Source of the DNA: Gemmatales bacterium
GTDB taxonomy: Bacteria; Planctomycetota; Planctomycetia; Gemmatales; HRBIN36
Reading direction: 5' to 3'
Assembly (NCBI GenBank): GCA_041640595.1
Contig: JBEPZY010000001.1
Location: forward strand, 736,001-800,000
DNA: 64,000 bases
Positions 22,754 through 44,448 of this stretch are shown here, piece after piece. Every line of letters begins with the position of its first letter. Positions within the stretch are counted from its first letter, which is position 1. A program made the translations under genes and the position numbers. Under the pieces are notes generated by a model. That model saw nothing but the letters and a program-made list of their open reading frames with translations, was not told the DNA's origin and ran no database searches.

Positions 22754-23174
22754 AGCGATCTCTCCGCCTGACCGATTGTTCAGGCACATTGTGGGTTAGT
22801 CCGCGGCCAGGTTCCCATATCGAGCAGTAGAAGCGGAAAGTGTGGCCGTTAGTCGGTGCCCGTTGACCACGTTATCGCTGCACATACAGGAAAGCCGCTT
22901 CGAATTGGCAACAGGAATCGGTGCAGGCTGGGCGTTACCCAGGCAAAAACCGCTATTGACCGGCACGCACCGGTACATTATTGAGCCGCTCTCTGGCAAG
23001 GGGCCTGTGCGCTCGTCATCTGCGATCGGGGAAAAGACTCGCGCCGTGAAGGCCACCGTTGCCTGGCATCGCAACCCGAAAAGCAACCGCGAAAGCTCAA
23101 AAATCGCTCTGCCGGCAATGCGGGGGACACCGGCAGCGAGCAGGCTTAGGCGGGAAGCACAAGGAGGAAGCACG

Positions 23175-26100
23175 GTGAACAGGGGTCAGTGGCTGGCCTG
23201 GTGGACGAGTGTTGGGCTGGTCATCGGGATTGTGGGCAGCCTGACGGGACAGCAAGCGGATACCGTTACTCGGCCGGCTGGCGCAACCATGCGTCCGGCG
23301 GCGGCGTTGCAGGAAGCCATCAATCTCTACCGCAAAGGCGAGTACGAAGAAGCCGCCAGGTTATTCGAGTTGGCCCAGCAGGGTCGCCAGCAACTCAGTC
23401 CAACCGAGCAGCAACGCCTGGACGAATACCGCAACCGCAATGAGGTGGCTCGTCTCGGTCGCCAGCAGACCCTGCAACAGTTGCAGGCTGCCCAGGAAGC
23501 GGTCAAGAACGGTCAGTGGAACGAGGCCGAGAACCTTCTGAAACAGCTGCGATCTAGCAACTATCTCAAACCGGAAGAACAGGCCCTGGTCAACCAACTG
23601 AGCGATCGCGTAGCTCGCCGGAACAATCGGCGCTGGTCGCTCTTCAACCGTGAAAGCAACGGGACGCGCAGCGACGCCGAGTCGTTGCTGGCGCAGGGGC
23701 GCGAGGCTCTCAAGAATAACGAACTCGACCGAGCCGAGACGCTGGCCCGACAGGCGAAGGAAGCCGGATATTCGGCTATTTTCCCCTGGAGCGATTCCCC
23801 CGACAAACTGCTCCGCGACGTTCAAGCAGCCCGATCGCGTCAGCAACCGGACAACGCCGCTACTGCCGCCACTCCCGATGCGGATCAACTGCTGGCGCAG
23901 GCGCGTGAAGCGTTTCGGCAAGGCGACCTCGACCGCGCCGAACAACTGGCACAGCAGGCCAAACAGGCCGGGCATTCCTCCTGGTTGCCGTGGAGCGATA
24001 CACCCGATAAAGTCCTGCGCGACGTCCAGCAAGCTCGTCGCACCCAAGGGCAGGGGACGCAGCAGCAATTGAAGCTACAGCAAGCTCGCCGACTGCTGAG
24101 CGAGGCCCACCAGGCGGTGCAGCAGGGTGACCTGCCCAAAGCTCGGCAATTGCTTGCCCAGGCCGAACGGTTGCAGGTTACATTGCCTCCTTATGAGCCG
24201 CATACCCCGGAGAAAATCCGCCAGGCCATCGCTCAAGCCGAGCAATCGCAGCGAGCAGCTTCGAACGTTTCGGAGCCGGCTAAGCCTGCCCCATCCACAA
24301 ACCCCAGCGACGCTGAACCTGTGACACGCCAGAATGCGCGTGCGAAACTCAAAGAGGCCCGGCATCTGTTCGAAGCAGGCCAGCTCGACCAGGCGGAGTC
24401 TCTCGCTCGCCGTATCCGGGTGGTTCCTGATTGCCGCTGGGGACTTTTCGAGGACACGCCCGACAAACTGCTCGCGGACATTTACAAAGCTCGTCAAGAA
24501 GCACATCGTCAACAGGCCGACGCTTTACTGGCCCAGGCCCGGCGAAAGCTGGAGCAAGGCCAGTTCGACGAAGCGGAAAAACTCGCTTACCAGGCCCGCG
24601 CTTTACAACCGCGTTATTCCATCTGGCACCGCGGCGAACATCCTGACCGTCTCCTGGCCGAAATCAAAGCGCGTCGCCAGCAGGCCAATCGTCCCCGCAT
24701 CCCGAACGACACTGCTACTGCGAACCAGCAGGCCACTCCGCGACCAGTCGAAGTTTCCCCCGCCAAGCAGCAGGCCCAGATGCTGTTGGTGCAGGCTCGT
24801 GCAGCACTCCAGGCAGGTCAACTTGTGCAGGCTCTGCAACTGGCACGCCAGGCCCGTCAGTATCCGGTTACCTGGGGAGCTGACGAAGATTCACCCGACA
24901 AGATCGAAAAAGCTGTAGAAGCACTGCTGGCCCAGCAACGAGACCGTGATCAACCCGAACAGGCTGCTCGTTTGCGCCAGCAGGCCTTGCTGTTGCTCGC
25001 CGATGCCCGCGAATTGCAACGTCAGGGGCAAGTCCTGCCCGCTATCCGTCGCGCCCGCGAAGCTCAGAAACTTCGTGCTGCCTTTCGCCCCGAAGACGAA
25101 ACTCCCGAACAGGTCTTACTCGATTTGCAAAACCAGGCTCATGGGCACATCGAAACCTTCAGCCGGGCCGCTCACACCTGGAAACAAATGGGCCGCTACT
25201 CTGAAGCGGAACAATGCCTCAAGTATGTCCGCACTTTGCAATCGGAATTACATCTCGACACGTTGCAAACCGATCAGCAATTCGCCGAACTTCAGCGTCT
25301 CCGTCAGGGTGCCCCTGTGGCTCAACTTCCCAACCAGGATGAAGGTCAACGTTTGCTCGAGCAGGCTCGGCGGGAATTGCGCGCCGGGGAACTGGTTCGC
25401 GCCCAGGAACTTGCCCGCCGTGTCTATACCGATCATGCTCACCTCCGCGTCGAAGCCAGCCAGTTGCTCGCGGAGATTGACGATGCCCAATATCGCCAAT
25501 CGGTACGCGAAGCCAATCGTTTCTACGAACTCGGTGTCCGAGCTTATAGCCGTGGCGAATACGCCCAGGCCGCCGCTTATTTCCAGAGCATCAATCCCCG
25601 TTTGCTCGACGAACGCAAACGCACTCACATGCAGGAAATCCTCTCAAGCAAGGAGATGCAGCCACACGCACTGGTACAGGCAGGACAGTTGCCACCAACT
25701 CCAGAAACCGCACCCGGTCAGGCAACCGCCACCGACCGCCCCAAACCTGCCACTACCACTGCCGACAATCTCCTGGACAAGGTGCAGCAACAACGGGAAG
25801 TGGAGTTGCAGCGGCTCCGCCACATCAAACTCGAAGCGGAACGCCAGGCCAATCGCTTCGCACAGAACAACGAACTCGACAAAGCCGTGGAAGTTCTCCA
25901 GCAGGCATTGCACGAAATCAAACATTCGCCCCTGGAGAGCGAAGCTGTCCTGGCTATGCAACGCCAACTCGAGCAGCGCATCCGAACCTTTGAGGCCAGC
26001 CGCCAACAACTGGCCTACGACCGACTCCGCCAGCAGACCTTGCGCGGCTCCAGTCCTCGAGAACGCGAAATTCTCGCCGACATTAACCGCAAGGAGCAGG

Positions 26101-28115
26101 TGGCCCAGCTGATGCAACAATACAGCCAGTATCTCAAAGAGGCCAAGTACAAGGAAGCTGAAGTGGTCGCCATGAAAGCCAAGGAACTTGACCCGGATAA
26201 CCCGGCCACCGAGGCGGCACTTATTCGGGCACGCACGCTACGAGCCCTCAGCGACGAAGAGCGCATTAAGTTCCAGAAAGAGCGCGGATTTGAGCTGGCC
26301 ATGCAGTCGGTCAACGAAGCTTCTGCCGCTCCCGAAAGCGACTGGCAGTACCCCAAAGATTGGGCCGAACGCAACCGCCGCCGCAACAAAGCCATTCAGC
26401 CTATCCGCCCGGAAACTCCGGAAGACAGGGACCTCTACCAGCGGCTCCAGCAGCCGGTCTCCATTGATTTTCGCGATAAGCCGCTCAGCGAAGTGCTCGA
26501 CCATCTTCGTTCCCTGTATGGTATCAACATTGTCCCGGACGAACCCGCTTTGCAGGCCGCTGGTATTTCTTTGAATCAGCCTGTAACCATTCGCCTGGAT
26601 AACCGCCCGCTGCGTACCTGTTTGAACCTCATCTTGCAAAATGCCCGGTTGACCTGGGTGGTGCGCGATGGTGTGTACATCGTTACCACCGAAGAAGGCA
26701 AACGCGGCAAGCTGGTGCAGAAGGTTTACCCGGTGGCTGACCTGATCCTGCCGGTGCAGGATTTCGGTAACGTTGGCAACAATTCCGCCAGCATCCTCAG
26801 CGTGATCCAGCAGAACATGAACAACCAGCAGCCCGCGCTGACAGCGCCGTGGACACTGCCCGGCGGCACTACCGTCAGCCAGGGAAGCATGGCTGGCAGC
26901 ACCTCGCCAGGACAAGCACAGGTCAAAGTCGAACCACCTAAAACCGCCAGCCTCGAGCAAACCCTCATCCGCCTCATCCACGAAACCATTGAACCGAAAA
27001 GTTGGGATGTCGCTGGCGGACCGGGCCACATTGACTACTACCCGCTGGGCATGCAATTGGTGGTCAGCGCAGATCCCGAAATCCAGGAACAGGTCGAACA
27101 ACTGCTTACCCGACTTCGCCAACTGCAGGAGCTACAGGTCACGGTCGAAGTCCGATTCATCACGCTGAGCGAAGCGTTTTACGAACGCATCGGCATTGAC
27201 TTCAATTTCCAGGTGGACGACGACCAGACCCGGTTCGACCGCATGGTGGTGGCCCAATCCTTCGCACCTCCAGGAATGATCAACGAGCCGGACCATCTCG
27301 ACAAAGTAGTAGTTGGCCTGGCGCCCACCGGGGCAGGGTTCAGTCAGGACCTCGATATACCGTTTACCAACAGCAGCTTCAGCAGAGCCATTCCGCCATT
27401 CGGCAACTTCCCCAACGCTGTGGGGAACAACGGCGGCCTTTCCTTCGGTTTTGCATACTTGAGCGACATAGAGGTTTTCCTGTTCATGGAAGCCGCCCAA
27501 GGAGACACCCGCGCTAACGTCATGCAGGCACCCAAAATCACACTTTTCAGCGGACAGACGGCTAACCTGACGGTTCAGGATGTGCAGTTCTTGGTAACTG
27601 GTGCCACTCCGCTGATTGGCCCGTTTGGTCAAGTGACCCTTGTACCGCAGGTACAGCCTTTCCCAACCGGGCTGCAGCTGTTTCTCCAAGCGGTGGTTCA
27701 TTCCGATCGCCGTTACGTTCGCCTCAGTCTCGCCCCGACATTCACCGCCTTGGCTCAGAACATTCCCCTTTTCCCGATCCAGATCAACGTCCCCGTGGTC
27801 AACCCTGACGGCTCCATTTCGCAGGTGCAGCTGACCCAGTTCATTCAGTTGCCAATCGAGTCAATCCTCTCGGTGCAAACAACGGTTATGGTACCGGATG
27901 GCGGAACCGTACTGATGGGCGGTTTCAAAACCCTGTCCGAGGGACGCACCGAATTCGGTCCGCCCATCCTCAGCAAAATTCCGTACCTGAACCGGCTGTT
28001 TACCAACACTGCGTACGGCCGCGAAGCCCGCTCCCTGATGATTATGATCACCCCACGCATCATCATCCCGGAAGAGGAAGAACAATTCCTGGGGCAGCAA
28101 CTGTTGCCGCCCTAA
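23175..28115 (+). CDS. Very large (about 1646 aa) type II/III secretion secretin-family protein with helical-repeat N-terminus
   Basis: AGGAGG RBS plus GTG and a signal peptide; N0/STN-like region; C-terminal QVTVEVRFI, APKITLFSGQ, TTVMVPDGGTVLMGG, PILSKIPYLNRLF, LMIMITPRII secretin motifs. Confidence 0.88.
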   Translation: MNRGQWLAWWTSVGLVIGIVGSLTGQQADTVTRPAGATMRPAAALQEAINLYRKGEYEEAARLFELAQQGRQQLSPTEQQRLDEYRNRNEVARLGRQQTLQQLQAAQEAVKNGQWNEAENLLKQLRSSNYLKPEEQALVNQLSDRVARRNNRRWSLFNRESNGTRSDAESLLAQGREALKNNELDRAETLARQAKEAGYSAIFPWSDSPDKLLRDVQAARSRQQPDNAATAATPDADQLLAQAREAFRQGDLDRAEQLAQQAKQAGHSSWLPWSDTPDKVLRDVQQARRTQGQGTQQQLKLQQARRLLSEAHQAVQQGDLPKARQLLAQAERLQVTLPPYEPHTPEKIRQAIAQAEQSQRAASNVSEPAKPAPSTNPSDAEPVTRQNARAKLKEARHLFEAGQLDQAESLARRIRVVPDCRWGLFEDTPDKLLADIYKARQEAHRQQADALLAQARRKLEQGQFDEAEKLAYQARALQPRYSIWHRGEHPDRLLAEIKARRQQANRPRIPNDTATANQQATPRPVEVSPAKQQAQMLLVQARAALQAGQLVQALQLARQARQYPVTWGADEDSPDKIEKAVEALLAQQRDRDQPEQAARLRQQALLLLADARELQRQGQVLPAIRRAREAQKLRAAFRPEDETPEQVLLDLQNQAHGHIETFSRAAHTWKQMGRYSEAEQCLKYVRTLQSELHLDTLQTDQQFAELQRLRQGAPVAQLPNQDEGQRLLEQARRELRAGELVRAQELARRVYTDHAHLRVEASQLLAEIDDAQYRQSVREANRFYELGVRAYSRGEYAQAAAYFQSINPRLLDERKRTHMQEILSSKEMQPHALVQAGQLPPTPETAPGQATATDRPKPATTTADNLLDKVQQQREVELQRLRHIKLEAERQANRFAQNNELDKAVEVLQQALHEIKHSPLESEAVLAMQRQLEQRIRTFEASRQQLAYDRLRQQTLRGSSPREREILADINRKEQVAQLMQQYSQYLKEAKYKEAEVVAMKAKELDPDNPATEAALIRARTLRALSDEERIKFQKERGFELAMQSVNEASAAPESDWQYPKDWAERNRRRNKAIQPIRPETPEDRDLYQRLQQPVSIDFRDKPLSEVLDHLRSLYGINIVPDEPALQAAGISLNQPVTIRLDNRPLRTCLNLILQNARLTWVVRDGVYIVTTEEGKRGKLVQKVYPVADLILPVQDFGNVGNNSASILSVIQQNMNNQQPALTAPWTLPGGTTVSQGSMAGSTSPGQAQVKVEPPKTASLEQTLIRLIHETIEPKSWDVAGGPGHIDYYPLGMQLVVSADPEIQEQVEQLLTRLRQLQELQVTVEVRFITLSEAFYERIGIDFNFQVDDDQTRFDRMVVAQSFAPPGMINEPDHLDKVVVGLAPTGAGFSQDLDIPFTNSSFSRAIPPFGNFPNAVGNNGGLSFGFAYLSDIEVFLFMEAAQGDTRANVMQAPKITLFSGQTANLTVQDVQFLVTGATPLIGPFGQVTLVPQVQPFPTGLQLFLQAVVHSDRRYVRLSLAPTFTALAQNIPLFPIQINVPVVNPDGSISQVQLTQFIQLPIESILSVQTTVMVPDGGTVLMGGFKTLSEGRTEFGPPILSKIPYLNRLFTNTAYGREARSLMIMITPRIIIPEEEEQFLGQQLLPP

Positions 28116-28202: not shown

Positions 28203-29157
28203 GAGCGGCGGGCGTCAGCCCGCCGTGGTTCTGTGAACCGAACGCTGCCCCGCGAGAATCGAACATTGTGCAGCGGCTATCGAACACCCATCCAAGAGCG
28301 GCGGGCGTCAGCCCGCCGTGGTTCGGTAACGCTCTGCAACGGGGTTGATAGTCCACGGCTGGCTTACGCCAGCCGCTCTTGGTGCACGAACGGACGTTTG
28401 ATGCAACATACGCTTGTCGCAATATGGACACGCACATTCGCAAGAGCGGCGGGCGTCAGCCCGCCGTGGTTCGGTAACGAGACGGGCCTGCAATGCACAC
28501 CGAACCATGTTCGCCCATTAACGACTACCGAACGAAGAGCGGCGGGCGTCAGCCCGCCGTGGTTCGGGAATCGCACCGGCAACGGCGAGCGTGTCTTGCC
28601 GAACGTGGATGCTCGCATGCCACGGGGGGCTTACGCCCCCCGCTCTTGTGTTGCCGTGCGAATGTCTGTCGACGAAAAAGCGATTTTTGCGATGGACGAA
28701 CGCATGTTCACAAGAGCGGCGGGCGTCAGCCCGCCGTGGTTCGGTAACGAGACGGGCCTGCAATGCACACCGAACCATGTTCGCCCACTAACGACTACCG
28801 AACGAAGAGCGGCGGGCGTCAGCCCGCCGTGATTCGGTAACGCTCTGCAACGGGGTTGATAGTCCACGGCTGGCTTACGCCAGCCGCTCTTGGTGCACGA
28901 ACGGACGTTTGATGCAACATACGCTTGTCGCAATATGGACACGCACATTCGCAGGAGCGGCGGGCGTTAGCCCGCCGTGGTTCGGAACGAGACGGGCCTG
29001 CAATGCACACCGAACCATGTTCACCCACTAACGACTAACCGAACGAAGAGCGGCGGGCGTCAGCCCGCCGTGGTTCGATGACGCATTTGCACTGGCCAGC
29101 GTTTTTCGCTGAACCAAAACGCGCGCGTCGCACGGCTGGCTCGCGCCAGCCGCTCCT
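28203..29157. repeat. Array of 12 REP-like palindromic elements (BIME/REPIN-like), ordered (forward, forward, inverted) x4
   Basis: GAGCGGCGGGCGTCAGCCCGCCGTGGTTC-type copies start at 28203, 28296, 28444, 28537, 28714, 28807, 28955 and 29048. Inverted variants lie at 28353-28380, 28620-28647, 28864-28891 and 29130-29157. Region 28294-28566 recurs at a 511-bp offset. Confidence 0.92.
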
Positions 29158-29375: not shown

Positions 29376-32300
29376 TTATTCGCGGACGGTAATTTCGACC
29401 GGCTTGGCTTCGGCACGGTTCGCTGGGGTGTAGTATTCGTAAGCTACCGTGCTCGGTGTCTTGGCGCGGATCGGATACTTCGGTTTGAGGGTGTATTCAA
29501 AGACTTTCACGTCGCCCGGCTTGACGTCGCCGAGGTACAGCGTTACCACCCGAGGCGTGATGGAGAAGCGTTCGATCTTCTTCTGCGATACCATTTCGGC
29601 AAATTCACCACCATCCACGGTGAAGCCGGGCGGAATGCCCAGGTCCACGATCACCATGTAGGTCGGGACTTCACCGTGATAACGAAGCGTGGCCTTCGCT
29701 TTGAGCGTGTCGGAGGTACGCAATTCGGTGCGGTCGTATTCCACGGACACGTCTATCACCGGCTTCTTCGGTTCAGGACGTTGCGTCCACGGCCGGTAAT
29801 AGCGAGTAACAATCTGGTACATCATGCCCGTTTCTGCGGACACGTTGATCCGCACCTCGTTCAAGCCGGTGCGGAGCTTGTCTTTCGGCACTTCAAACAG
29901 TTGCAGCACGTCGGAATTGTTTTGGGTCACTTCGCCGCTGAACAGTTTTTCGCCGTTGATGGTGACGGTAAAGGTGGCGTCTTTGGTCTGCGTAATGCCG
30001 CCGTAGCTGGCAACCAGAGCTTTGAGAGCGAGAATGGTGGCCTGGGTGCTGCCCCAGGTAGGTCCCTGTTTCGACTTGACCAGATAAGTCAGGGCCTGGT
30101 TGATGCTGTTGGGGTTGAAACCCGCTTTGATCATCGCCAGGGTTGCCAGAGCAGTGGTTTCGACGGCCAGGCTGTCGCCACGGGCGTACGTCAAGCCAAC
30201 GCCTCGCTCGACCGGGAAGCAGATCGCGTTCCATTCCGGTAGAGCCTTGCGAAGATTGTCGAGCGTCCGCAGCACTTCGAGAGTGGTTTCGTGTTTGGGA
30301 TCGTAGCTGGCCAGCGCATTGGCAACCAGTGCCAGCACGTAAGCATTATCGCCCGCTTCGTTGCGATGCTCGCGAATGTAGGCGATAGCCTTGTCCACTT
30401 CCTTACCGCGATAACCGCTTTCGAGTAGCGCCCAGGTCACGTAGCTGGTGAGCAGGAGTTTCGGATTACCCATTCGTTCGATGGTTTCGCCGTGGGTCGC
30501 TCCAATTTGCGACCAGGTGCCGTCAGACTCCTGCTTGCGGAGCAAGAATTGTTGCGTGCGGGTGATGACACCGGTGTCAATGGGATAGACTTTGGCCATG
30601 TCGGTGAATTCCATCAGGCCGTACGCGCTGAGCCAGACGAGAGATTCACCGTTGCCCCACCAATCAAAACCACCGCCGGGTCGTTCGAAGGTGAGGAGCT
30701 TCTGATAGCCGATGTTCAGGTATTGTTCCGCCTTGGCGAGGATTTGCGGGTTGGCCACACGGGCCTTTTTCACGTAGTCCGCGACCAGAATGTTGGGATA
30801 GGCCACGGACGACGTTTGCTCAAATCACCCAAACGGCATGCGGAGCATGCCTTCGACACCTTCAATGACCTGGCTCATCACGCCCGGATAAATCTTGACC
30901 AGGATTTTCGCGGAATCGGGGACAATACCGTCGGGAATTTCCACCTGATGGGTGGCCTGACCGGTGAGCCTGTCGGTGATGGATTTCTCGATTTTTTCGC
31001 CATCGGGCAGCACCTCAATGGTGCGTTTGATGGCATCGCTCATCTGTGTTCCGCGGGCGGTAACCGTCAGCGGGAGGTCACCGATTTTCTTGGCGCGGAA
31101 GCGGAATTTGACCGAGGTAACCTCGTTCGGCTTGAGGGCCACCTTGCGTTCGTAGCCCTGGCCGTCGGTCAGCTCGAACCAGTCCTCCTGCTTGAGTGTC
31201 AGGACTACCGTTTGCTGCTCCTTGAGATAGTTGTAAATGGCAACCGGGAACGCTATTTCGTCGTTCTGGGTCAAAGTACGCGGCAGGTCGAGGTCCACGA
31301 AGAAGTCCTGGAAGACCCGTAACGGAGCCGTGGTGCCGCCCAACAGTCCACCTTTGGAAGATGCCGAGGCAGTCAGTCGCCAGGTGGTGATCGAGTCGGC
31401 CAGTTGCAACGGCAGATGGGCAACGCCTTTCTCGTCGGTAATGAGCTGCGGCTGCCAGAGCAGCGTCTCCGGGAAGTACTCGCGGACGTAGATGGAAGGT
31501 TGTTCGCCAGCTTCACCGCCACCGGCACCGCCAGCGGCACCTTGCAGACCACCACGGTCTGCTGCTGCTGCCGGAGCGGCCAGAGGTATCGCACGAGGAG
31601 CGGCAGGCCTGGCGGCAAATTTCGCCTCACCCGCTGCTCTCAAGAACTCTCGCCCGTCGAGAGCAAGCTCTCGTATATTTACGTCCAGGAAGCGGTTACG
31701 GAGCCTGAGCCGATCCATCAACTCGTTGCCGCGGTAGCTGGCGAGCAGAGCTTTCCGCTCACCGGGCTCCACCCACCACAGATGAACCAATTCCGCCTCG
31801 GTCGGTGTGACCAGTCGAATATCATCGGCGGTGCCGAACTTACCATCCGGACCGGCGGAAACCAGTGCATAATAGGCGAACTGGTCTGCCTGAGCCTCCG
31901 GTTGTTTTTTATCCACAGCGACGAGACGAATTGGTCGGCCCCAGGCATCCTGAAGCTGGCGTTGCAGTTGCCGTTTCTGATCGGCATTGAGCTGAGGAAC
32001 CTGGCGATTGGGACCCAGGCCAAAATGTTGAACCGTTACCGCCTCCTCGAGGAAACCTTCCGGGAAAGTCCATCGGCCGTTCTGGAAGAGCTGTTGCCTG
32101 CGCTGCTGACTCCAGTGGATGACGGCCCAGTAGTGTTGCGCCATTCTCTGAGCGGTGATTGCAGCTGCCAGGCGGTCCGCTGTTAGTCCGGGGTGCAAAC
32201 TGGAGAGACTTTCTTCCGTTACCGGCTCACCGAAAGGCGTCGTCAGGAGTTTCTGCAGAATCTCCTTGTCCACCTCGCCGAAAAATTGCCGCACTGCCTG

Positions 32301-34964
32301 CCGCAGAATTCCTTTCTTGAACCGGCTGGTTCCAGTCTTCGCGTCGAACTCGATGCAGTCGGGATGGCTGTGAATATAGGCCCACAGCACTTCTCCCAGG
32401 GTGCGAATCTGCTCCTGAATTCGCAATCGCCGCTCGATAACCGGGTTGACTTCCCAGCGTTGCGGCGGTTTGGGCCGAACCGGTGCCAGCAATACCTGAG
32501 CGATTTGCTGCTGCTCCGCCGGCAATACATCCACCGGCTGACGCACAATCTGGTCGAAAGGCAGACCCGGCTGCACGATTTGCACTCTCGGTTTGAGCAA
32601 TTCCTCTTGCAGCGTGAAGAAGATTTTCTCTAGGCCTGGCTGCATCTCCTGCAGGGCATAAACAGCCTCATCCACGATGATCACGCCCAGCGCTGCCGGA
32701 ACCGGCTTGCCAGCTGTGTCGGTTACCTGGAAGCGAATGCTGGTGGCTTCGCCAGGTCGGAATGTGTCCTTTTCCCGCGCCACTTCAATCTTCAGTTCGT
32801 CGCGGGGCTGGACGTAAATGACCCGGCTGTCGCGGATGATTTCCCCATCGGCCAGCATCTGGTATGCGTGTACCTCGAGGCTGCCAAACAGCGCGGGCGG
32901 AATGTCCAGCTTGGCGCTGGCCTTTCCGTCCTTAACGTCCAGCCATTGCGACAGCAACACCTGGCCTGATTTGATGATGTCCAGATAAACCGTGGGCAAA
33001 CCGGCGGAACTGCGAATGTCCACGACCATCGTATCACCGGCACGGTAAACGGCTTTGTCAAGCCGCAACAGGACGTTTTCGCCGAATAATTCGCAATTGA
33101 GCTGGGCCGCAGTGTGCGCTCGATGACCCTGTTTATCCTGGGCTTCGGCAACCAGGTCGCAAACCAGTCGCGGCCCCGGAATGGTAATCGTCTGCCCGCC
33201 GAGCAACTCTATTGTCTGTGGCTCAGGCTGACCACCTAGCATGGGCCGAATGCCAGGTCGGCCCGGCCGAATCGGGCGTATGCCGGGACCTATGTCGTCT
33301 GCGAAACCCGGACCCGCAAACGCTTGCCGGAGGTTCTCCTTACGCGGAGTCAGCACAAACTCTGCCAGCCCGGCCGCGTTAGTTTTCAGCACTGCGATCG
33401 GCTCTCCACGTTTGCCCGAAGCCTGCGGTTTCCCCTGGTCGGAACTTTCCCGCTCACCGAACCAGACACGCACGGTGCAATCGGCCGCAGGGCTGCCGTC
33501 AGGATAAACCGCTGCCACGAAAACGCGGTTCTCCATTTCGGGTACCAGCCGGCCACCCTCGGCAATCAAACCAATACGGATCGGCTGATCGCTGACCGGA
33601 TAAGTCCGCGTAATGGTCTCGCTGTGTTCAGCGGTATCCGTTACCGTGACCTCGAACTTAACCAGCGCATTGCCCCTTTGCAGCGGCTGCCCGACAAAGT
33701 AGTCGGGCAACTTGATTTCAAACTTCACATGCCCATTGCTGTCCGTTTTCCCTTCCCAACGGGCAAATTCTTTGAATTCGACGTCGAAGGTACTGGCCGA
33801 GACTTTCACGGTACCGCCAGCCACCGGCTTGCCGAAGAAGTAGTCGCACTGCAACTCGGCTTTGACCGTTTCTTTGGGCAGGTAGAACTTCTTGTCGGTG
33901 GTCAACTCCACCTTGAACTTGGGCAGCACATACTTTTTCACCGTGACCGTCTTCTTGGCTTCGTGCTGACCGAGAGCAGCACGGATCTGGTAATCACCCA
34001 TGTTGACTTCATCGGCCAGCTGGAAATCCACTGAAGCGATGCCATACTCCGAGGTTTTCACCGACCGCTTGAAGACCTTGTTGCCTTTCGGGTCCTGGAT
34101 CTCGAACAGGATTTCACTGTCGGCCACAGGAGTCAAATCGAACGGACGCAGAGCCAGCGCACGCAGGTGAATGATCTGGCCCGGCTGGTACAAAGGTTTG
34201 TCGCTGACGAGGAGAATTTTCGGCTCGGCCTTCACCTGAACCGTCTGTTCCAGCTTTTCTTCGCCCAGTGGGCTGCGCGTGTGGATTTCGACCTTATACT
34301 GCCCAGGCGGCAAATTCGGAACCGGTACGGTCACCATGGCCGAACCTTTGGCGTCGGTGCGACCCTGCTCCAGAGGGATTTTCTTGCCGTCTTTGTCCAC
34401 CAGGCACACTGCAAATTCCGCTCCGCCGAGCGGAACCGTTTCGGTCAACGACTTCGCGCCCTGCACCTGCAGACGAAGCGCCGCCCGGCTACCCGCATGC
34501 CATTCCTTGCTGGCCAGCACCGCCGTCTCGTGAGCCTTGACCAGCAGCACTTTGCTCAGGGGCACCACAATCTGCTCTTTGCCAAACTCGACCCGCAACT
34601 GCAAATCGCTGGCAGCTTGCTGCGGGCGCGGAAACTCGAAGCGGTAGCTTTCGGCCAGGTCGGTTTGTTTGACGGCCAGTTGCTGCGTCGAGAGTACCTG
34701 GTTTGCGGAATCGAGCAAACTCACCTTGAGCGTGCCGGCCAGGGGTGCCTGAACTTTGCCGGCTTGTGGATTCTCAATGGTTACCGCCACCAGCAATTTT
34801 TCGCTCGTTTGAAAGGCCGCTGCACCGTCCACGGAGAGAACTCCTGCTTGCACCGGAGGCGATTGCAGAAGCCAGAAGGCTCCAGCAATTATCAACGCTC
34901 CCATCGCCACTACCATGCCTGCCCGCGCTGCCAGAACCAGCCTGGTCTTTGTAGCGTCGTGCAT
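29376..34964 (-). CDS. Alpha-2-macroglobulin family thioester protein, 1862 aa if the in-frame TGA at 30825-30827 (thioester Cys position) is recoded
   Basis: MG domains (SDKPLYQPGQ, YVLPKFKVEL, DYFFGKPV, VDEAVYAL); VREYFPETLLW; LADSITTWRLTA; FQDFFVDLDLP; MPFG-TGA-FEQTSS; thioester domain (GGFDWWG, LSAYGL, WGSTQATILALKAL) and C-terminal domain. The two track ORFs (30825..34964 and 29376..30806) are in the same frame. Confidence 0.88.
30772..30815 (-). promoter_or_regulatory. Candidate SECIS-like/recoding stem-loop 3' of the in-frame UGA
   Basis: ACGU-C-GUCCGUGGCC [14-nt loop UAUCCCAACAUUCU] GGUCGCGGAC-U-ACGU: 14 bp including two G-U pairs, starting at the 10th nt after the UGA. The loop lacks the canonical G. 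Confidence 0.45.
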
Positions 34965-39676: not shown

Positions 39677-40122
39677 GTATCGTCCCTCCTTCAACGTGTT
39701 TCTTGACCAGCACCGAGCTTAGCGCTGGCAGCCATCCCTCGATAATTTACACCCGAGCTATTGGTTTTACACTTTTGACGCTGGTTTCCGGCAGAAAGTT
39801 CCCTGATGAAAGTTTAGCTAAAGACCGGCGACGCCGGCAAGTATCACTTCGCTATTTCTCAGAATAATCCCTTGCGGCCGTCCATGCCGCGACAATTGCC
39901 TCGACCCATGCGGCGTTTGCAGCGTAGGCGTTTATGCCGTAACCGGCTAAAATTGGCAGCAAATGCCAGGTAACCGTCATGCTGCCCAGGCATTTTTTTC
40001 GGCCCTTCCCAGGCCAGCCAACCCCGGCCATCCGAATATATCCCGGCGGTAGGAAGGAACCGAAACCCGCTCCCCCGTCAAATCGCCGGGAGCTTCTAAA
40101 CCTGCCTCAGCGGAGGGCGCAG

Positions 40123-43100
40123 ATGAACCGGTCACACGAAAGCAAGGGCGGTGGATGTTCCCGTTGTCTCGGCCAGAAAATCGCCGCATCAATCGGCTTT
40201 GGCGTTCTTGGCGGTGGATGGTTACTGGTGATGGCGTGGATAAGTCTAACTGACACAGCCGGTGGGCAGGCAACCGATAAGGCTCCAGCTGCCGGAGACC
40301 TGCCGGGCATCGTCTTCGTTGCCGCTCCGGTCTTTGATGAGGCGACCGATGTGCAGGAAGGCTACGTAGGCAGTTATCACTGGCGAGACGGTTACCTCTA
40401 CCCGCGAGCGGCCACCTATCATCGCAAAGAACGCACCACCGGCCCGATGCGTCTGGGGAAAAATCTCTATCTGCTGACACCGGCCCGACCGGATGGCCAG
40501 TTACGCCAGCTGACGTTTCTGCAAACTGAAGGGGCAGTTTATAAACCGGAACCTTCCTACGACGGTCGCAAAATCCTGTTCAGCATGCGTAAAGATGGCG
40601 AAGATTGGTTCCATCTATACGAAATGGACGTGGAGAGCGGTAAGGTTCGCCAGCTGACGGATGGGCCGTTTAACGATTTCGCTGGTTGTTACCTCCCTGA
40701 TGGACGAATTGTTTTCGTCTCCGACCGCACCGGGTTTTTGGAGGAGTACCACGAAGAGCGGACGGAATGCTTGTTCGTCATGAATCCCGATGGAACGGGA
40801 ATCCACCAGATCACCTTCAACCCAGGAACCTATTTCGAGCCGTCCGTTCTGCGCGATGGACGGATTATATGTGCCTTCTGGGATGCGTTTCACCTGAACG
40901 TTCCGCCGCTCGATAAACACGAAACGGTGCTGGTTACGCTCAATCCCGATGGCACGGATGAACGGCATTATTTCGGAGCAGGGCAATATCGCTTTTTCGG
41001 ACGGGAACGGCATAGCGGTGTATCGTTTACGACACCCCGGGAAATGCCCGATGGCCGCATCCTGGTGCAATGCGAACTGGGCCCGGCGATTGTGGATATT
41101 CGAGCCGGCCAGCATCCCCGTGATGCGCTGGTGCCGATCTTTCCAGGAGCGACTTCGATCCAAATTGGCGGTACCACGCATCGCGTCCATCTATCGCCGT
41201 TGGGCACGCGGAGCACCGCCTATCCATTGCCCGACGGTCGCATTTTATATTCGGCCACGAAACCCGGCGCCCGCGACAGTGCCATCTACATAACCGACCC
41301 GTTCACGCGCGAGGAAAGGTTGATTTACGACATCCCCAATTATGCCGAGTTCGACCCCGTGCCGGTTCGGATGCCGCGACCGTTGCCGCGACGCTTACCC
41401 CAGCAGATCAAGCATCCCGAAGTGTATGCGTCGGGTCTGGGGCAGCTAGAAGAATTGCCGTCACCGAGTCGCACAGGGCCAACGCAGGAATCAGCGTCTC
41501 CGACACCGACGCCGGGCTGGTCGCGGTTTGTGGTCGTAGCAGGGCGGGAGTCGGATTTTCCCGAACGCACTGCCGCACTGAGCCGTGCTCGTTATCTGCG
41601 TGTGATGGAGGCGGAGTACACGGCAGTTACGACCAGCAGCCATACCAATCTCGAAACGCGGATTCTTGGGGTGGTGCCGATCCACGAAGACGGCTCAGCT
41701 TACTTTGAAGTGCCTGCCGATACCCCGATCTTTCTCGACGTGCTGGACGCAGCCGGCCAACGAGTGCTGCACGCCTGGCCACTTGCTAACACTTCCATCG
41801 AGCGCGGTCGGCCAGTCAGCCTGACGCAGATCGCTTACATGAGCGCTCGCAGCGGGGAAGTTCGCTCCTGCTACGGTTGCCATGCACCGCAGCAGGTGGC
41901 CGCGCCCAACGTTTCTCTCGAAGCTCTGCGACATCCTCCAGTGCGTATCGGTCGCCATGTTGCGAACCTGCAATATCGCCGCAATGAGCCGGACTATTAC
42001 CGTCGGCAAGCGATAGTCGGCAGCGGCCAAGCGGAAATGTACCGCCGCTGGTTGGACAGTCGCGATCCCTGGGTCCGAGCTCGCGGTTGCGAAATGCTGG
42101 CATATCTCGAGGATGAAGCCACCGCGGCCCTGCTGAAAATTGTCGAATTGACCCGCGATCCCGATGTGCACGTGCGACGAAACGCTGCCTGGGCCCTGTG
42201 TGTGCTGGGCAGAACCGAGCACGTACCCCTGTTACGCGAACTGGCCGAGCGCGATCGTGACGAGCTGGTGCGCTTCCATGCCCGTTCGGCATTGCAGGTA
42301 CTCGACCAGCCTGCCGACCCGGAACTCGTCATGGAAAGGCTGGGCCGACTCAGTCAGATTAGCCCCGATGACTTACAGCGAATCCGTGCGACACTGCGGC
42401 AAAGTTTACCGCCACTGTCGGCTCTACGTGCGGCCGGGCGATGCCGCGATCGCGAAGCGGTAGCGTTGCTGGTACCCTGGCTGGATCGGGCGGAAATGGA
42501 GGCTTATGCGAAAGAAGCCGCCCGGGCCTTGGGCCGAATTGGCAGTCCCGAAGCCGTGCAGGCGTTGTGGCACGCGTTGCGTCGTCACGTACCGAACAAA
42601 CGCGTTTTCAACGTGCGGTATTTCCAGCACGGTCCCCGACCGGAGGAATATGCGATTCTGGAGGGACTGGTGCTGGCCGGTGCCCGTCCTGAGCCTGAAG
42701 ACATCCCATTGCTGATCGCGCTTTTGCCCAATGCTTTCATGGAGAAGCCACGCTTTGAAGACCGGTTCCGCAGCGAAACTGCCCGCGTAGTTTGGCCAAG
42801 AGTGTTGCTTGAGCGAGGCGGTTACCGCAAGCCGATCGTGCGGATGCTTTGCCAGACCTTGCAGCACAACTCACCGGCTGAGACTACCGGGCGTCCCGAA
42901 ACCGTGTCTCAACCAAAATTCTCCGAAGCAGAGTCCCAGCAGCTTTACCAGGCGGTCTTGCAGGGGATCAACTTAGAACGGCCGTTCCAGGAGCACGGCC
43001 GACCATTCCCGGTCATTCCTGCCGTCGGGGCAGAAGAAGCATTATGGCTTTTGACCTGCCTGGCCCAACCCGGCGAGGTACCGGAAGAAATTATCGTGCC

Positions 43101-44448
43101 CTATTTGACCTCCGCATATCACCGCGAACGGATAGATGCGGCGGTGCTGTTAGCTTTACAGGGTTTTCGCTCGCCAAATCCAGACCCGAATGGTGCCGAA
43201 GCGGTTTTGCTCCGCGAAGCCAGCAAAGCGTATCCTTTCCCGGAAATCTGGAGCATCGGCAAAGGCATGCCAGACGACAACTTCCGCGATAAAGCCTACA
43301 TGGTGCAGGCTCTGGCAATGCACACGGCGAATCTGGGTGCTCTGGAACGGTTCACCGATCCTGGCTCGGCCTACCGCGACCAGCGTTACGCGCTAGCACG
43401 AGGACTGGCCCGGCGAGGCAAAACCGACGGCATTCCTTTGTTGCTGCGGCTGTGCCAGGACCCCCTGACGGTTGTGCAGCAGCAGGCCCGTTATGCTCTG
43501 GCGGACATTCGCGATCAAGCCCGGTTACGCGGTGAGCCGGTGCCCCATTTTCGAGTCGCCTGGCCAGGTGTGAAAGATACCGAAGCAACGCAGGGGCGAG
43601 CCTCACCGGAAACGCCGCCCATCTGGGTGCCCGTCAACGATACCTCCTGGGTTCAGCGTCAGTATCCCGCCAGAGTTTACTCCTGGCCAAGCACGAAGCC
43701 CGCACCGTTACCGCAACGCCTGTCCTTACCACAACCACTCACGGACTGGCAGAAGCTGCTTTTGCCGCAACACTTCCGCAATCTCAGCATTCCATTTGTA
43801 CGTGGTGCCGACAGGATGATGGTGCAACATGCCCACGAACTGGCCAGCATTGCCGAGGCGTTGCGCCAGCTGCCACCGCAGCAAACACGCGAGATGTGGC
43901 TGCGCTGGCTGGACTCTCCTTACCCGTATGCGCAATACCTGGCGCTGGAATCGCTGTCGCTACAACCCCAGCCCCAGCTGACACCATTGCTGCTGCAAAA
44001 ACTCAACGAATTTGCACAACGGGGGAACGCCGTCGGTTTCTGGTGGTGTTGTGAAGCACTGGCGGCAGTGGCGAAACAGCTGCCCGATGCGAGTAGCAAT
44101 GCTTCGGCATCGCGGGCCCAGGTAGTGCAAGCCCTGGCGAAATACGCTGGCCCGTCGCCGTCATCCTCAGCATTCTTCGGCCCGGAAGGAATGGCTCTGG
44201 GTTATCCGGCAGCCAGGGCGATCGGCCGAATTGCAGCCAGTACCGATCACGAATTGGTGAGGCGACTCTGGCAGAGCGATAATCTCTGGCTTCGCGCCGG
44301 TGTCTTACGCGGATTGGCTGAAACCAGAGCCGCAAATCTCGCCGATTGGCTCCTGGAGGCCCGGCAACCATCGCAGCCCGCATTGGTACGAATGGAAGCG
44401 GAAATCCAGATGCGTCGGCTCGGGCGAGCATCGGTACCAGCGGAGTAA
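40123..44448 (+). CDS. Secreted HzsA-like protein: TolB-like propeller, hydrazine synthase alpha middle-domain-like region, single CxxCH heme motif, HEAT repeats
   Basis: SYDGRKILFSM, QLTDGPFND...YLPDGRIVFVSDR, RILGVVPIHEDGSAYFEVPADTPIF...LD..G, GEVRSCYGCH; VRRNAA.AL and AARALGRIG HEAT-like repeats. The start is uncertain (39979 or 40123). Confidence 0.72.
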   Translation: MNRSHESKGGGCSRCLGQKIAASIGFGVLGGGWLLVMAWISLTDTAGGQATDKAPAAGDLPGIVFVAAPVFDEATDVQEGYVGSYHWRDGYLYPRAATYHRKERTTGPMRLGKNLYLLTPARPDGQLRQLTFLQTEGAVYKPEPSYDGRKILFSMRKDGEDWFHLYEMDVESGKVRQLTDGPFNDFAGCYLPDGRIVFVSDRTGFLEEYHEERTECLFVMNPDGTGIHQITFNPGTYFEPSVLRDGRIICAFWDAFHLNVPPLDKHETVLVTLNPDGTDERHYFGAGQYRFFGRERHSGVSFTTPREMPDGRILVQCELGPAIVDIRAGQHPRDALVPIFPGATSIQIGGTTHRVHLSPLGTRSTAYPLPDGRILYSATKPGARDSAIYITDPFTREERLIYDIPNYAEFDPVPVRMPRPLPRRLPQQIKHPEVYASGLGQLEELPSPSRTGPTQESASPTPTPGWSRFVVVAGRESDFPERTAALSRARYLRVMEAEYTAVTTSSHTNLETRILGVVPIHEDGSAYFEVPADTPIFLDVLDAAGQRVLHAWPLANTSIERGRPVSLTQIAYMSARSGEVRSCYGCHAPQQVAAPNVSLEALRHPPVRIGRHVANLQYRRNEPDYYRRQAIVGSGQAEMYRRWLDSRDPWVRARGCEMLAYLEDEATAALLKIVELTRDPDVHVRRNAAWALCVLGRTEHVPLLRELAERDRDELVRFHARSALQVLDQPADPELVMERLGRLSQISPDDLQRIRATLRQSLPPLSALRAAGRCRDREAVALLVPWLDRAEMEAYAKEAARALGRIGSPEAVQALWHALRRHVPNKRVFNVRYFQHGPRPEEYAILEGLVLAGARPEPEDIPLLIALLPNAFMEKPRFEDRFRSETARVVWPRVLLERGGYRKPIVRMLCQTLQHNSPAETTGRPETVSQPKFSEAESQQLYQAVLQGINLERPFQEHGRPFPVIPAVGAEEALWLLTCLAQPGEVPEEIIVPYLTSAYHRERIDAAVLLALQGFRSPNPDPNGAEAVLLREASKAYPFPEIWSIGKGMPDDNFRDKAYMVQALAMHTANLGALERFTDPGSAYRDQRYALARGLARRGKTDGIPLLLRLCQDPLTVVQQQARYALADIRDQARLRGEPVPHFRVAWPGVKDTEATQGRASPETPPIWVPVNDTSWVQRQYPARVYSWPSTKPAPLPQRLSLPQPLTDWQKLLLPQHFRNLSIPFVRGADRMMVQHAHELASIAEALRQLPPQQTREMWLRWLDSPYPYAQYLALESLSLQPQPQLTPLLLQKLNEFAQRGNAVGFWWCCEALAAVAKQLPDASSNASASRAQVVQALAKYAGPSPSSSAFFGPEGMALGYPAARAIGRIAASTDHELVRRLWQSDNLWLRAGVLRGLAETRAANLADWLLEARQPSQPALVRMEAEIQMRRLGRASVPAE

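Follow-up and report, generated by a model that had tools for sequence, protein, structure and literature searches.

In a Gemmatales bacterium of the Planctomycetota, a gene of the alpha-2-macroglobulin (A2M) family carries an in-frame UGA codon at the position of the cysteine that forms the internal thioester of these proteins. The gene lies on the minus strand at 29376..34964 of the window, the 64,000-nt stretch of DNA analysed here (contig JBEPZY010000001.1 of assembly GCA_041640595.1, positions 736,001 to 800,000). It comprises 1862 codons and a TAA at 29376-29378, with the one UGA read through. Judged from its own sequence and that of its homologues, it very likely represents a genuine full-length A2M decoded with selenocysteine (Sec). 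The actual incorporation of selenium at residue 1380 can be expected with great confidence, and once Sec is in place the formation of an internal selenoester is rather probable. The computational analysis establishes the codon, the conservation of the codon, the Sec machinery, an RNA structure and translation-level constraint downstream. The gene appears to belong to a widespread and apparently uncatalogued selenoprotein family.

The minus strand from 30839 down reads ATG CCG TTT GGG TGA TTT GAG CAA ACG TCG TCC GTG GCC TAT CCC AAC. UGA codon 1380 (30825..30827, minus strand), the proposed Sec codon, thereby falls within a thioester-type motif G-U-F-E-Q (30816..30830, minus strand) that has U for Cys. 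Two minus-strand open reading frames (ORFs), one of 1379 aa at 30825..34964 and one of 476 aa with a GTG start at 29376..30806, share a common frame. The original prediction had said as much and had called the TGA the only interruption over 1862 codons. The ORF list and the joint translation agree with both statements: with TGA read as U, positions 29376-34964 give 1862 residues in which U1380 is the sole recoded position, followed by the TAA. The GTG of the 476-aa ORF is codon 1387 and thus starts after E-Q, again as predicted. The placement of the TGA at the thioester Cys is confirmed by alignment, U1380 matching without gaps the Cys of GCGEQ in human A2M and A2ML1. The motif residues G, E and Q are kept, and the codon at the Cys of G-C-x-E-Q is UGA and not TGY. 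Since no Cys stands at the motif, the protein is counted as a variant and not as a standard thioester protein. A genome-wide reassignment of UGA was considered and rejected: TGA serves as the stop of 8 further long ORFs in the window, and each of the 24 Trp codons in the A2M frame is TGG.

The codon recurs well beyond this genome. Among 60 related genomes the six closest orthologues (65-100% identical, from two taxonomic families) have one TGA each, and the homologues beyond these six have none. A set of 400 genomes across the phylum yielded 35 strong matches; many of them, from many families, contain exactly one TGA, and some of the 35 genomes with a strong match carry it in two paralogues. 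All 34 homologous loci flagged with one TGA have it at the thioester codon (G-U-[F/M]-E-Q), and 43 other loci have TGC or TGT at the same codon; these two groups are called Sec forms and Cys forms below. The codon state of L072, L088 and L091 was settled by tblastn and that of the other loci by motif search. E-Q is retained in all recovered sequences, in searches whose motifs required it. TGA in independent lineages with Cys in others, which the original prediction regarded as support for Sec, is the distribution found (34 TGA and 43 TGC/TGT, several phyla).

A DNA pattern scan of prokaryotic genomes with the degenerate motif P-x-G-TGA-[F/M..]-E-Q-x5-[Y/F]-P-N returned at least 119 loci. Homologues of the A2M thioester domain (TED) account for 117 of the 119 listed. 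They are 32-93% identical to the window protein, and their frame stays open in both directions from the TGA for as far as the available DNA extends. At least seven phyla are represented in all: Planctomycetota (53 loci), Chloroflexota (50), Myxococcota (4) and, with one locus each, Eiseniibacteriota, Abditibacteriota, Vulcanimicrobiota and Acidobacteriota; six loci are unlabelled. The nearest named relatives of the window gene, among the matches listed, are labelled Gemmatales bacterium. A match in an archaeal metagenome-assembled genome (MAG; L132) was discarded as a chance occurrence of the pattern. In a Myxococcota MAG (L134) the TGA motif stands in a broken frame, with open stretches covering 31 out of 236 codons upstream and 135 out of 244 downstream, and this locus may be a decaying copy or an assembly error.

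Metagenomes scanned with the TED segment of the window protein contributed 62 loci, with TGA at the codon in 39, TGC or TGT in 8 and the motif not found in 15; a looser motif search of the same set gave 40 TGA and 7 Cys. The three sets combined hold at least 160 distinct TGA contexts and at least 50 distinct Cys contexts, and the presence of TGA at the same codon in so many distinct homologous sequences argues that it is not there by chance. Sec and Cys forms occur together in single genomes (L024/L096 in G051, L086/L066 in G164, L090/L075 in G176 and L055/L094 in G236), and nine genomes have two Sec paralogues each. Each of the best 120 full-length relatives in the database has Cys, and their names are 'hypothetical', 'MG2 domain-containing' or 'YfaS'. 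Gene callers stop at UGA, so that Sec forms are not stored as full-length proteins; as a consequence, many genomes carry the family under a wrong annotation and counts of selenoproteomes leave it out.

The source genome (4.45 Mb, 95% complete) encodes the machinery for Sec insertion. Its tRNA-Sec scores 75.7 bits against a cut-off of 47 bits and is called tRNA-SeC(tca) by ARAGORN. SelA (568 bits) is adjoined by SelB (387 bits), and SelD (390 bits) also has one TGA within its frame, placed at the canonical ...TCAG-U-AGKLP... site, with strong hairpins directly after it. All four genes named for a search in the original prediction, selA, selB, selC and selD, are therefore present. The SelD gene (L017), itself encoding a selenoprotein, lies at 725715-726641 of the contig, about 9.4 kb before the first base of the window. 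Of 24 other Planctomycetota genomes with the TGA, 23 gave a SelA match, versus 26 of 39 Cys-only genomes. SelA was also found in all 10 TGA-bearing genomes tested from Chloroflexota, Myxococcota, Eiseniibacteriota, Abditibacteriota, Vulcanimicrobiota and Acidobacteriota, which brings the total to 33 of the 34 other TGA-bearing genomes tested.

The main candidate for a selenocysteine insertion sequence (SECIS), an atypical one, is hairpin 1 (30772..30815, minus strand), which starts 9 nt after the UGA. Its loop of 14 nt (30800-30787) is closed by an upper stem of 10 bp, in which 30810-30801 pair with 30786-30777, and 4 further bp form the lower stem. Folded within a 71-nt context it reaches -29.3 kcal/mol (z = -3.7). 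For the window gene, the minimum free energy (MFE) of the 66 nt that follow the codon is -22.9 kcal/mol. The mean for this segment is -22.8 kcal/mol in the 34 Sec forms versus -11.5 in the 43 Cys forms (-13.7 in 22 closer, GC-matched Cys forms), a comparison of related sequences whose significance is overstated for that reason. Hairpin 1 is absent from the same 43 Cys forms, and the Sec forms use at least three stem registers. In 16 sequences picked by eye for the register of the window gene, a choice that inflates the paired fraction, 88.8% of the cells are paired versus 29-46% with the partner slid. Double changes occur in 7 of the 14 pairs, and none of 500 shuffles reaches the covariation score. 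Several of the compensatory changes alter both encoded amino acids and are therefore hard to explain without selection on the RNA.

The bacterial SECIS (bSECIS) model, in the form given in PMC13188914 (Fig. 2 legend), has an upper stem of 4-16 bp, a distance of 16-37 nt from UGA to loop, an MFE of -7.5 kcal/mol or lower and an apical loop of 3-9 nt whose first or second nucleotide is G. Hairpin 1 lies within this form of the model in its stem (10 bp), spacing (24 nt) and energy. The same paper places a subset of bSECIS elements outside the model, and atypical elements missed by SECIS-based predictors are described there and in the deep-Sep paper. The atypical hairpin may explain why predictors of this kind would miss the family.

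A second and smaller structure follows. Hairpin 2 (GGCC-CGUGU-GGCC; 30753..30765, minus strand) is found 63 nt after the UGA and has G at the second loop position. It is 96.9% paired in the alignment, with double changes in 3 of its 4 pairs. A script written post hoc counted comparable small hairpins, located 53-68 nt past the codon and having G within the first two nucleotides of the loop, in 32 of 34 Sec forms versus 9 of 43 Cys forms; 26 of the 43 Cys forms have no small hairpin of any kind. Loops such as GGC, GUC, GGA and GUA stand at the same position in L021-L025 and L050-L090. When hairpin 1 is closed, the path from the UGA to hairpin 2 shortens to about 19 nt, which suggests that the two hairpins form a composite SECIS in the Planctomycetota forms. 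Hairpin 2 may be an auxiliary element or a SelB-binding minihelix.

The Chloroflexota forms (49 distinct sequences, among L097-L215) have a different element, a near-invariant GUACGUC-GGY-GACGUAC 10 nt after the UGA. Synonymous sites are frozen within it, and L214 carries a compensatory variant. The loop GGY agrees with the loop of the bSECIS model as quoted above. On our reading of these sequences, the Chloroflexota hairpin would fit the canonical model and would be a lineage-specific SECIS solution for the same Sec site. RNAalifold recovered only the short hairpin from the 49 sequences, with low energy.

The relation between Sec and Cys forms was traced on a maximum-likelihood tree of 76 sequences, with the short row L025 left out. 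One clade (32 rows, SH-aLRT 95) unites 30 Sec and 2 Cys forms and has paralogue duplications inside it. Three Sec lineages fall outside this main Sec clade, and at least five changes of state are needed. By this tree the Sec clade is old and diversified. Exchange also occurs between close relatives. The metagenomic loci L216 and L217, 99% and 97% identical to the window gene, have TGA, and L218, at 96%, has TGT although its hairpin is still complete (-24.2 kcal/mol). At about 65% identity the hairpin is lost from the metagenomic Cys forms L229, L230 and L247 (-14.0, -14.0 and -10.8 kcal/mol). We read L218, which is probably the database protein P0002, as a recent Sec-to-Cys change with a fossil SECIS, and take a TGT at such high identity with the hairpin intact as evidence that Sec and Cys do the same job. 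Besides the Sec/Cys column itself, only three weak columns separate Sec from nearby Cys forms, so the replacement sits in an otherwise unchanged pocket. Phylogeny explains all three columns, and they offer no hint to the mechanism.

The protein read from the full frame has the complete A2M architecture in Pfam: MG2, MG3, A2M_BRD, A2M, TED_complement and A2M_recep, with PF01835, PF17791, PF07703, PF00207, PF07678 and PF07677 all exceeding their cut-offs. The TED (residues 1362-1651; 30012..30881, minus strand) spans the UGA and matches PF07678 with E = 1.7e-43 over profile positions 11-310 of 312. The bait-region domain (A2M_BRD, residues 633-771; 32652..33068, minus strand) is encoded 5′ of the UGA, and the C-terminal receptor-binding-type domain (A2M_recep, residues 1769-1853; 29406..29660, minus strand) is encoded 3′ of it. 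Hydropathy marks an N-terminal segment at residues ~9-35 (34860..34940, minus strand) as a signal peptide or anchor; its maximum 19-residue hydropathy is 2.23 and no other such segment occurs in the protein. Since 31 of 37 full-length homologues also have the segment, the window A2M is probably exported. No lipobox pattern was matched in the first 45 residues, and none of the NCBIfam families matches the protein, which has no curated name there.

The same order of domains (MG2, MG3, bait, A2M, TED, receptor-binding) is found in metazoan A2Ms (human A2M, A2ML1 and CD109; TEP1; C3/C4). The best sequence matches in the PDB are likewise metazoan: A2M (7von/6tav, E ~4e-66), A2ML1 (7q1y), CD109 (8s3o), TEP1 (2pn5) and then C3/C4. 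The motifs align without gaps, MPFG-U-FEQ in the window protein and MPYG-C-GEQ in metazoan A2M. Unlike the metazoan proteins, the window protein has a UGA at the thioester Cys, is bacterial, begins with a signal or anchor and has an insert of ~395 aa after the bait domain. Type-1 bacterial A2Ms are periplasmic protease traps that carry a lipobox Cys and are encoded next to the gene for penicillin-binding protein 1C. Those of E. coli (ECAM/YfhM) and Salmonella (SaA2M; structures 5a42, 4ziq and 4u48) resemble the window protein in being bacterial, exported and endowed with a C-x-E-Q type motif. Their match is confined to the surroundings of the motif and is far weaker (E = 2.6e-14 for ECAM and 1.5e-12 for SaA2M, against 4e-66 for human A2M). 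ECAM has Cys where the window protein has UGA, and the window protein has no lipobox. Among the six neighbouring ORFs scanned at the window locus there is no gene for a penicillin-binding protein, unlike in the type-1 arrangement.

The established mechanism of the A2M family starts at the Gln of C-x-E-Q, whose amide is attacked by the Cys thiolate. The resulting thioester is buried until a protease cleaves the bait region, and then acylates that protease. In the window organism, one exported A2M of 1862 residues would be made from the full frame, UGA 1380 being decoded as Sec by SelA, SelB and tRNA-Sec. Decoding would be directed by the intragenic RNA structure 3′ of the UGA, hairpin 1 and possibly hairpin 2. 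Sec would then substitute for the thioester-forming Cys of G-C-x-E-Q. In the folded TED its selenolate would attack the side-chain amide of Gln1383 and produce an internal gamma-glutamyl selenoester. Cleavage of the bait region by a protease would expose the selenoester, and the protease would be acylated and covalently trapped. A selenolate is a better nucleophile and a better leaving group than a thiolate, so that the bond should form and transfer faster and be more labile. Even chances are given to the broader proposal that a large, old and diversifying family of A2M traps in Planctomycetota, Chloroflexota, Myxococcota and others uses an encoded, self-forming gamma-glutamyl selenoester as its warhead. 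In this evenly balanced proposal, Sec and Cys paralogues and rapid codon flips would tune the reactivity of the warhead, and hairpin 1 may act as a spacer that places the hairpin 2 minihelix ~19 nt from the UGA.

The rival that survives best accepts the insertion of Sec and denies the selenoester: residue 1380 would be a free selenol, part of a selenenylsulfide or a selenium-dependent translational gate. The selenoester is something that we infer. Sec in catalogued selenoproteins is almost always redox-active and located in oxidoreductases, and a Cys paralogue beside one or two Sec paralogues, as in G051, G164, G176 and G236, would fit functional divergence or conditional expression. The main texts of surveys in which Sec is classically a redox residue contain no mention of 'thioester' (PMC13188914, PMC12013277, PMC9312934, PMC5029168). 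These points make a role without the selenoester conceivable, yet it is doubtful, as the rest of the thioester motif and the pocket is unchanged apart from the three weak columns, and E-Q is always kept in searches that required it. In addition, Sec and Cys have been swapped at least five times on the tree, once at 96% identity, which argues that both residues do the same job.

A route other than Sec insertion is improbable. The UGA would in that case be read by a near-cognate Cys or Trp tRNA, or as Cys via the Sec pathway at low selenium, and an A2M with an ordinary thioester would result. That Cys can function at the site is clear from the 43 Cys loci and L218. A leaky stop, however, would not select a covarying hairpin specific to the TGA forms, nor would it confine these forms to SelA-positive genomes (33 of 34 tested), and TGA is a normal stop elsewhere in the window while Trp is always TGG in the gene.

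It is very unlikely that the locus is a pseudogene or split gene, with an A2M cut short after residue 1379 by a nonsense mutation and a 476-aa piece that is either not translated or produced separately from its GTG. Gene callers do treat the locus as split, and the Sec forms are missing from the best 120 full-length relatives, all of which have Cys. Against this stand the same TGA in at least 160 distinct sequences from at least seven phyla with the frame open on both sides, the age and diversity of the Sec clade, and the position of the truncation, which would cut the TED 18 residues past its start. Selection on the two sides of the codon was compared by the Nei-Gojobori method between the window gene and four orthologues, dS being near saturation in the two distant pairs. 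The dN/dS values are 0.094, 0.121, 0.218 and 0.316 upstream of the TGA and 0.077, 0.085, 0.205 and 0.213 downstream. As the downstream values (0.08-0.21) are as low as those upstream (0.09-0.32), purifying selection continues past the codon, and the C-terminal 482 codons are under at least equal protein-level constraint.

The stretch occurs in 20 rows, which come from 19 studies; one of them may be its source. Four runs labelled as hot springs or microbial mat were compared as contigs, two of DNA (X2 and X4) and two from RNA libraries (X15 and X16). None differs in any base at 30825-30827, and one contig from each RNA library bridges the UGA codon. A sequencing or assembly error for TGC or TGT, for which nothing was found to speak, has a negligible chance of being the explanation: the four runs agree on the codon despite strain variants at ~8 other places in the 901 bases in each of X4, X15 and X16, and orthologues in other assemblies also have TGA. 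The contigs of the independent runs thus dispose of the doubt about position 30825 raised in the original prediction. Nonsense mutation and sequencing error, two alternatives listed there, count as excluded by the 160 or more TGA contexts, the dN/dS values and the four runs.

Several points weigh against a Sec-decoded selenoester protein, among them the selection by eye of the hairpin 1 sequences and the relatedness of the forms behind the Sec-versus-Cys statistics, as given above. The loop of hairpin 1, UAUCCCAACAUUCU, has 14 nt and no G, and so departs from two constraints of the bSECIS model in its quoted form. Hairpin 2 has a fitting loop at 63 nt from the UGA, outside the 16-37 nt of that same form. 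The mean MFE of the 66-nt segment in the Chloroflexota forms, -14.4 kcal/mol, overlaps that of Cys forms. SelA is missing from one TGA-bearing genome, G253, which is 59% complete. The reversions to Cys in L218, L091 and L094 show that Sec is dispensable. The case is one of sequence; contigs from RNA libraries prove neither transcription nor translation and give no level of expression, and such libraries may contain DNA. Finally, a selenoester is more labile than a thioester, and its formation from a Gln amide and persistence in the folded protein may be questioned.

Like the bacterial selenoprotein genes with an intragenic SECIS read by SelB (PMC13188914), the organism's own selD included, the A2M gene has a UGA aligned to a Cys, a stem-loop within the ORF and the full machinery in its genome. 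It differs from them in the 14-nt loop without G and in the second small loop 63 nt away. The Sec site of the window protein is an acyl-transfer (thioester) site and that of known bacterial selenoproteins an oxidoreductase site. Selenoesters of synthetic peptides and proteins are used for ligation, the acyl-Se bond serving as an activated acyl donor with fast kinetics (for example PMC10947028 and PMC11600164). Those are man-made, and the selenoester of the window protein would be genetically encoded and self-forming. In literature outside subscription journals no report was found of a natural, genetically encoded and self-forming protein selenoester, and full-text searches of that literature turned up no paper that connects selenocysteine to the thioester site of A2Ms. 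The main texts of PMC13188914, PMC12013277, PMC9312934 and PMC5029168 contain neither macroglobulin nor thioester nor A2M; that of PMC1794560 contains neither macroglobulin nor thioester; and macroglobulin, thioester and MG2 are absent from the five supplements of PMC5029168. These negatives cover main texts, and an A2M may be listed in the supplements of PMC12013277 (Table S2, new selenoproteins) or PMC9312934. Within this scope the searches agree with the earlier statement that no selenoprotein has been described in the family.

Sec here replaces the Cys that holds the activated acyl bond throughout the A2M/complement superfamily. If the selenoester forms, this would be new protein chemistry achieved by ordinary translation, the first selenoester in a natural protein, and a case in which selenocysteine serves acyl transfer and not redox chemistry. 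It would also amount to a natural experiment on selenium versus sulfur, in which the Sec forms can be compared against Cys paralogues and near-identical Cys revertants.

The insert of ~395 aa (residues 772-1166; 31467..32651, minus strand) between the bait-region and A2M domains has no Pfam family above cut-off (best E = 0.078). Within it, SAGPDGKFGTADDI is reminiscent of a motif at the C-terminus of type II secretion pseudopilins, a likeness for which Pfam gave no confirmation. A scan of six ORFs near the A2M gene identified, among others, a secretin-domain protein, a response regulator with an HD domain, a ClpP-like protease and a HEAT/HZS_alpha protein; they offer no hint to the function of the A2M. 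The first of these is a 1757-aa ORF at 22842-28115 (plus strand), which is convergent with the A2M gene and encodes an STN domain and, at its C-terminus, a secretin domain. A 1489-aa ORF at 39979-44448 (plus strand) contains HEAT repeats, PD40 and a middle domain similar to hydrazine synthase alpha.

A scan of the minus strand of the A2M gene gave no terminator-like site between the TGA and the TAA. The original prediction placed a single terminator after the second half of the gene; a terminator-like signal does exist past the gene end, at more than one site (29134-29119 and 29070-29051, minus strand). Downstream of the A2M gene, a 20-nt GC-rich stem-loop, CGGCGGGCTGACGCCCGCCG, with a 10-nt tail, CTCTTCGTTC, stands at 29051-29070 and, 241 nt away, again at 28810-28829 (both minus strand), and may be a repeated terminator-like element or a piece of a longer direct repeat.

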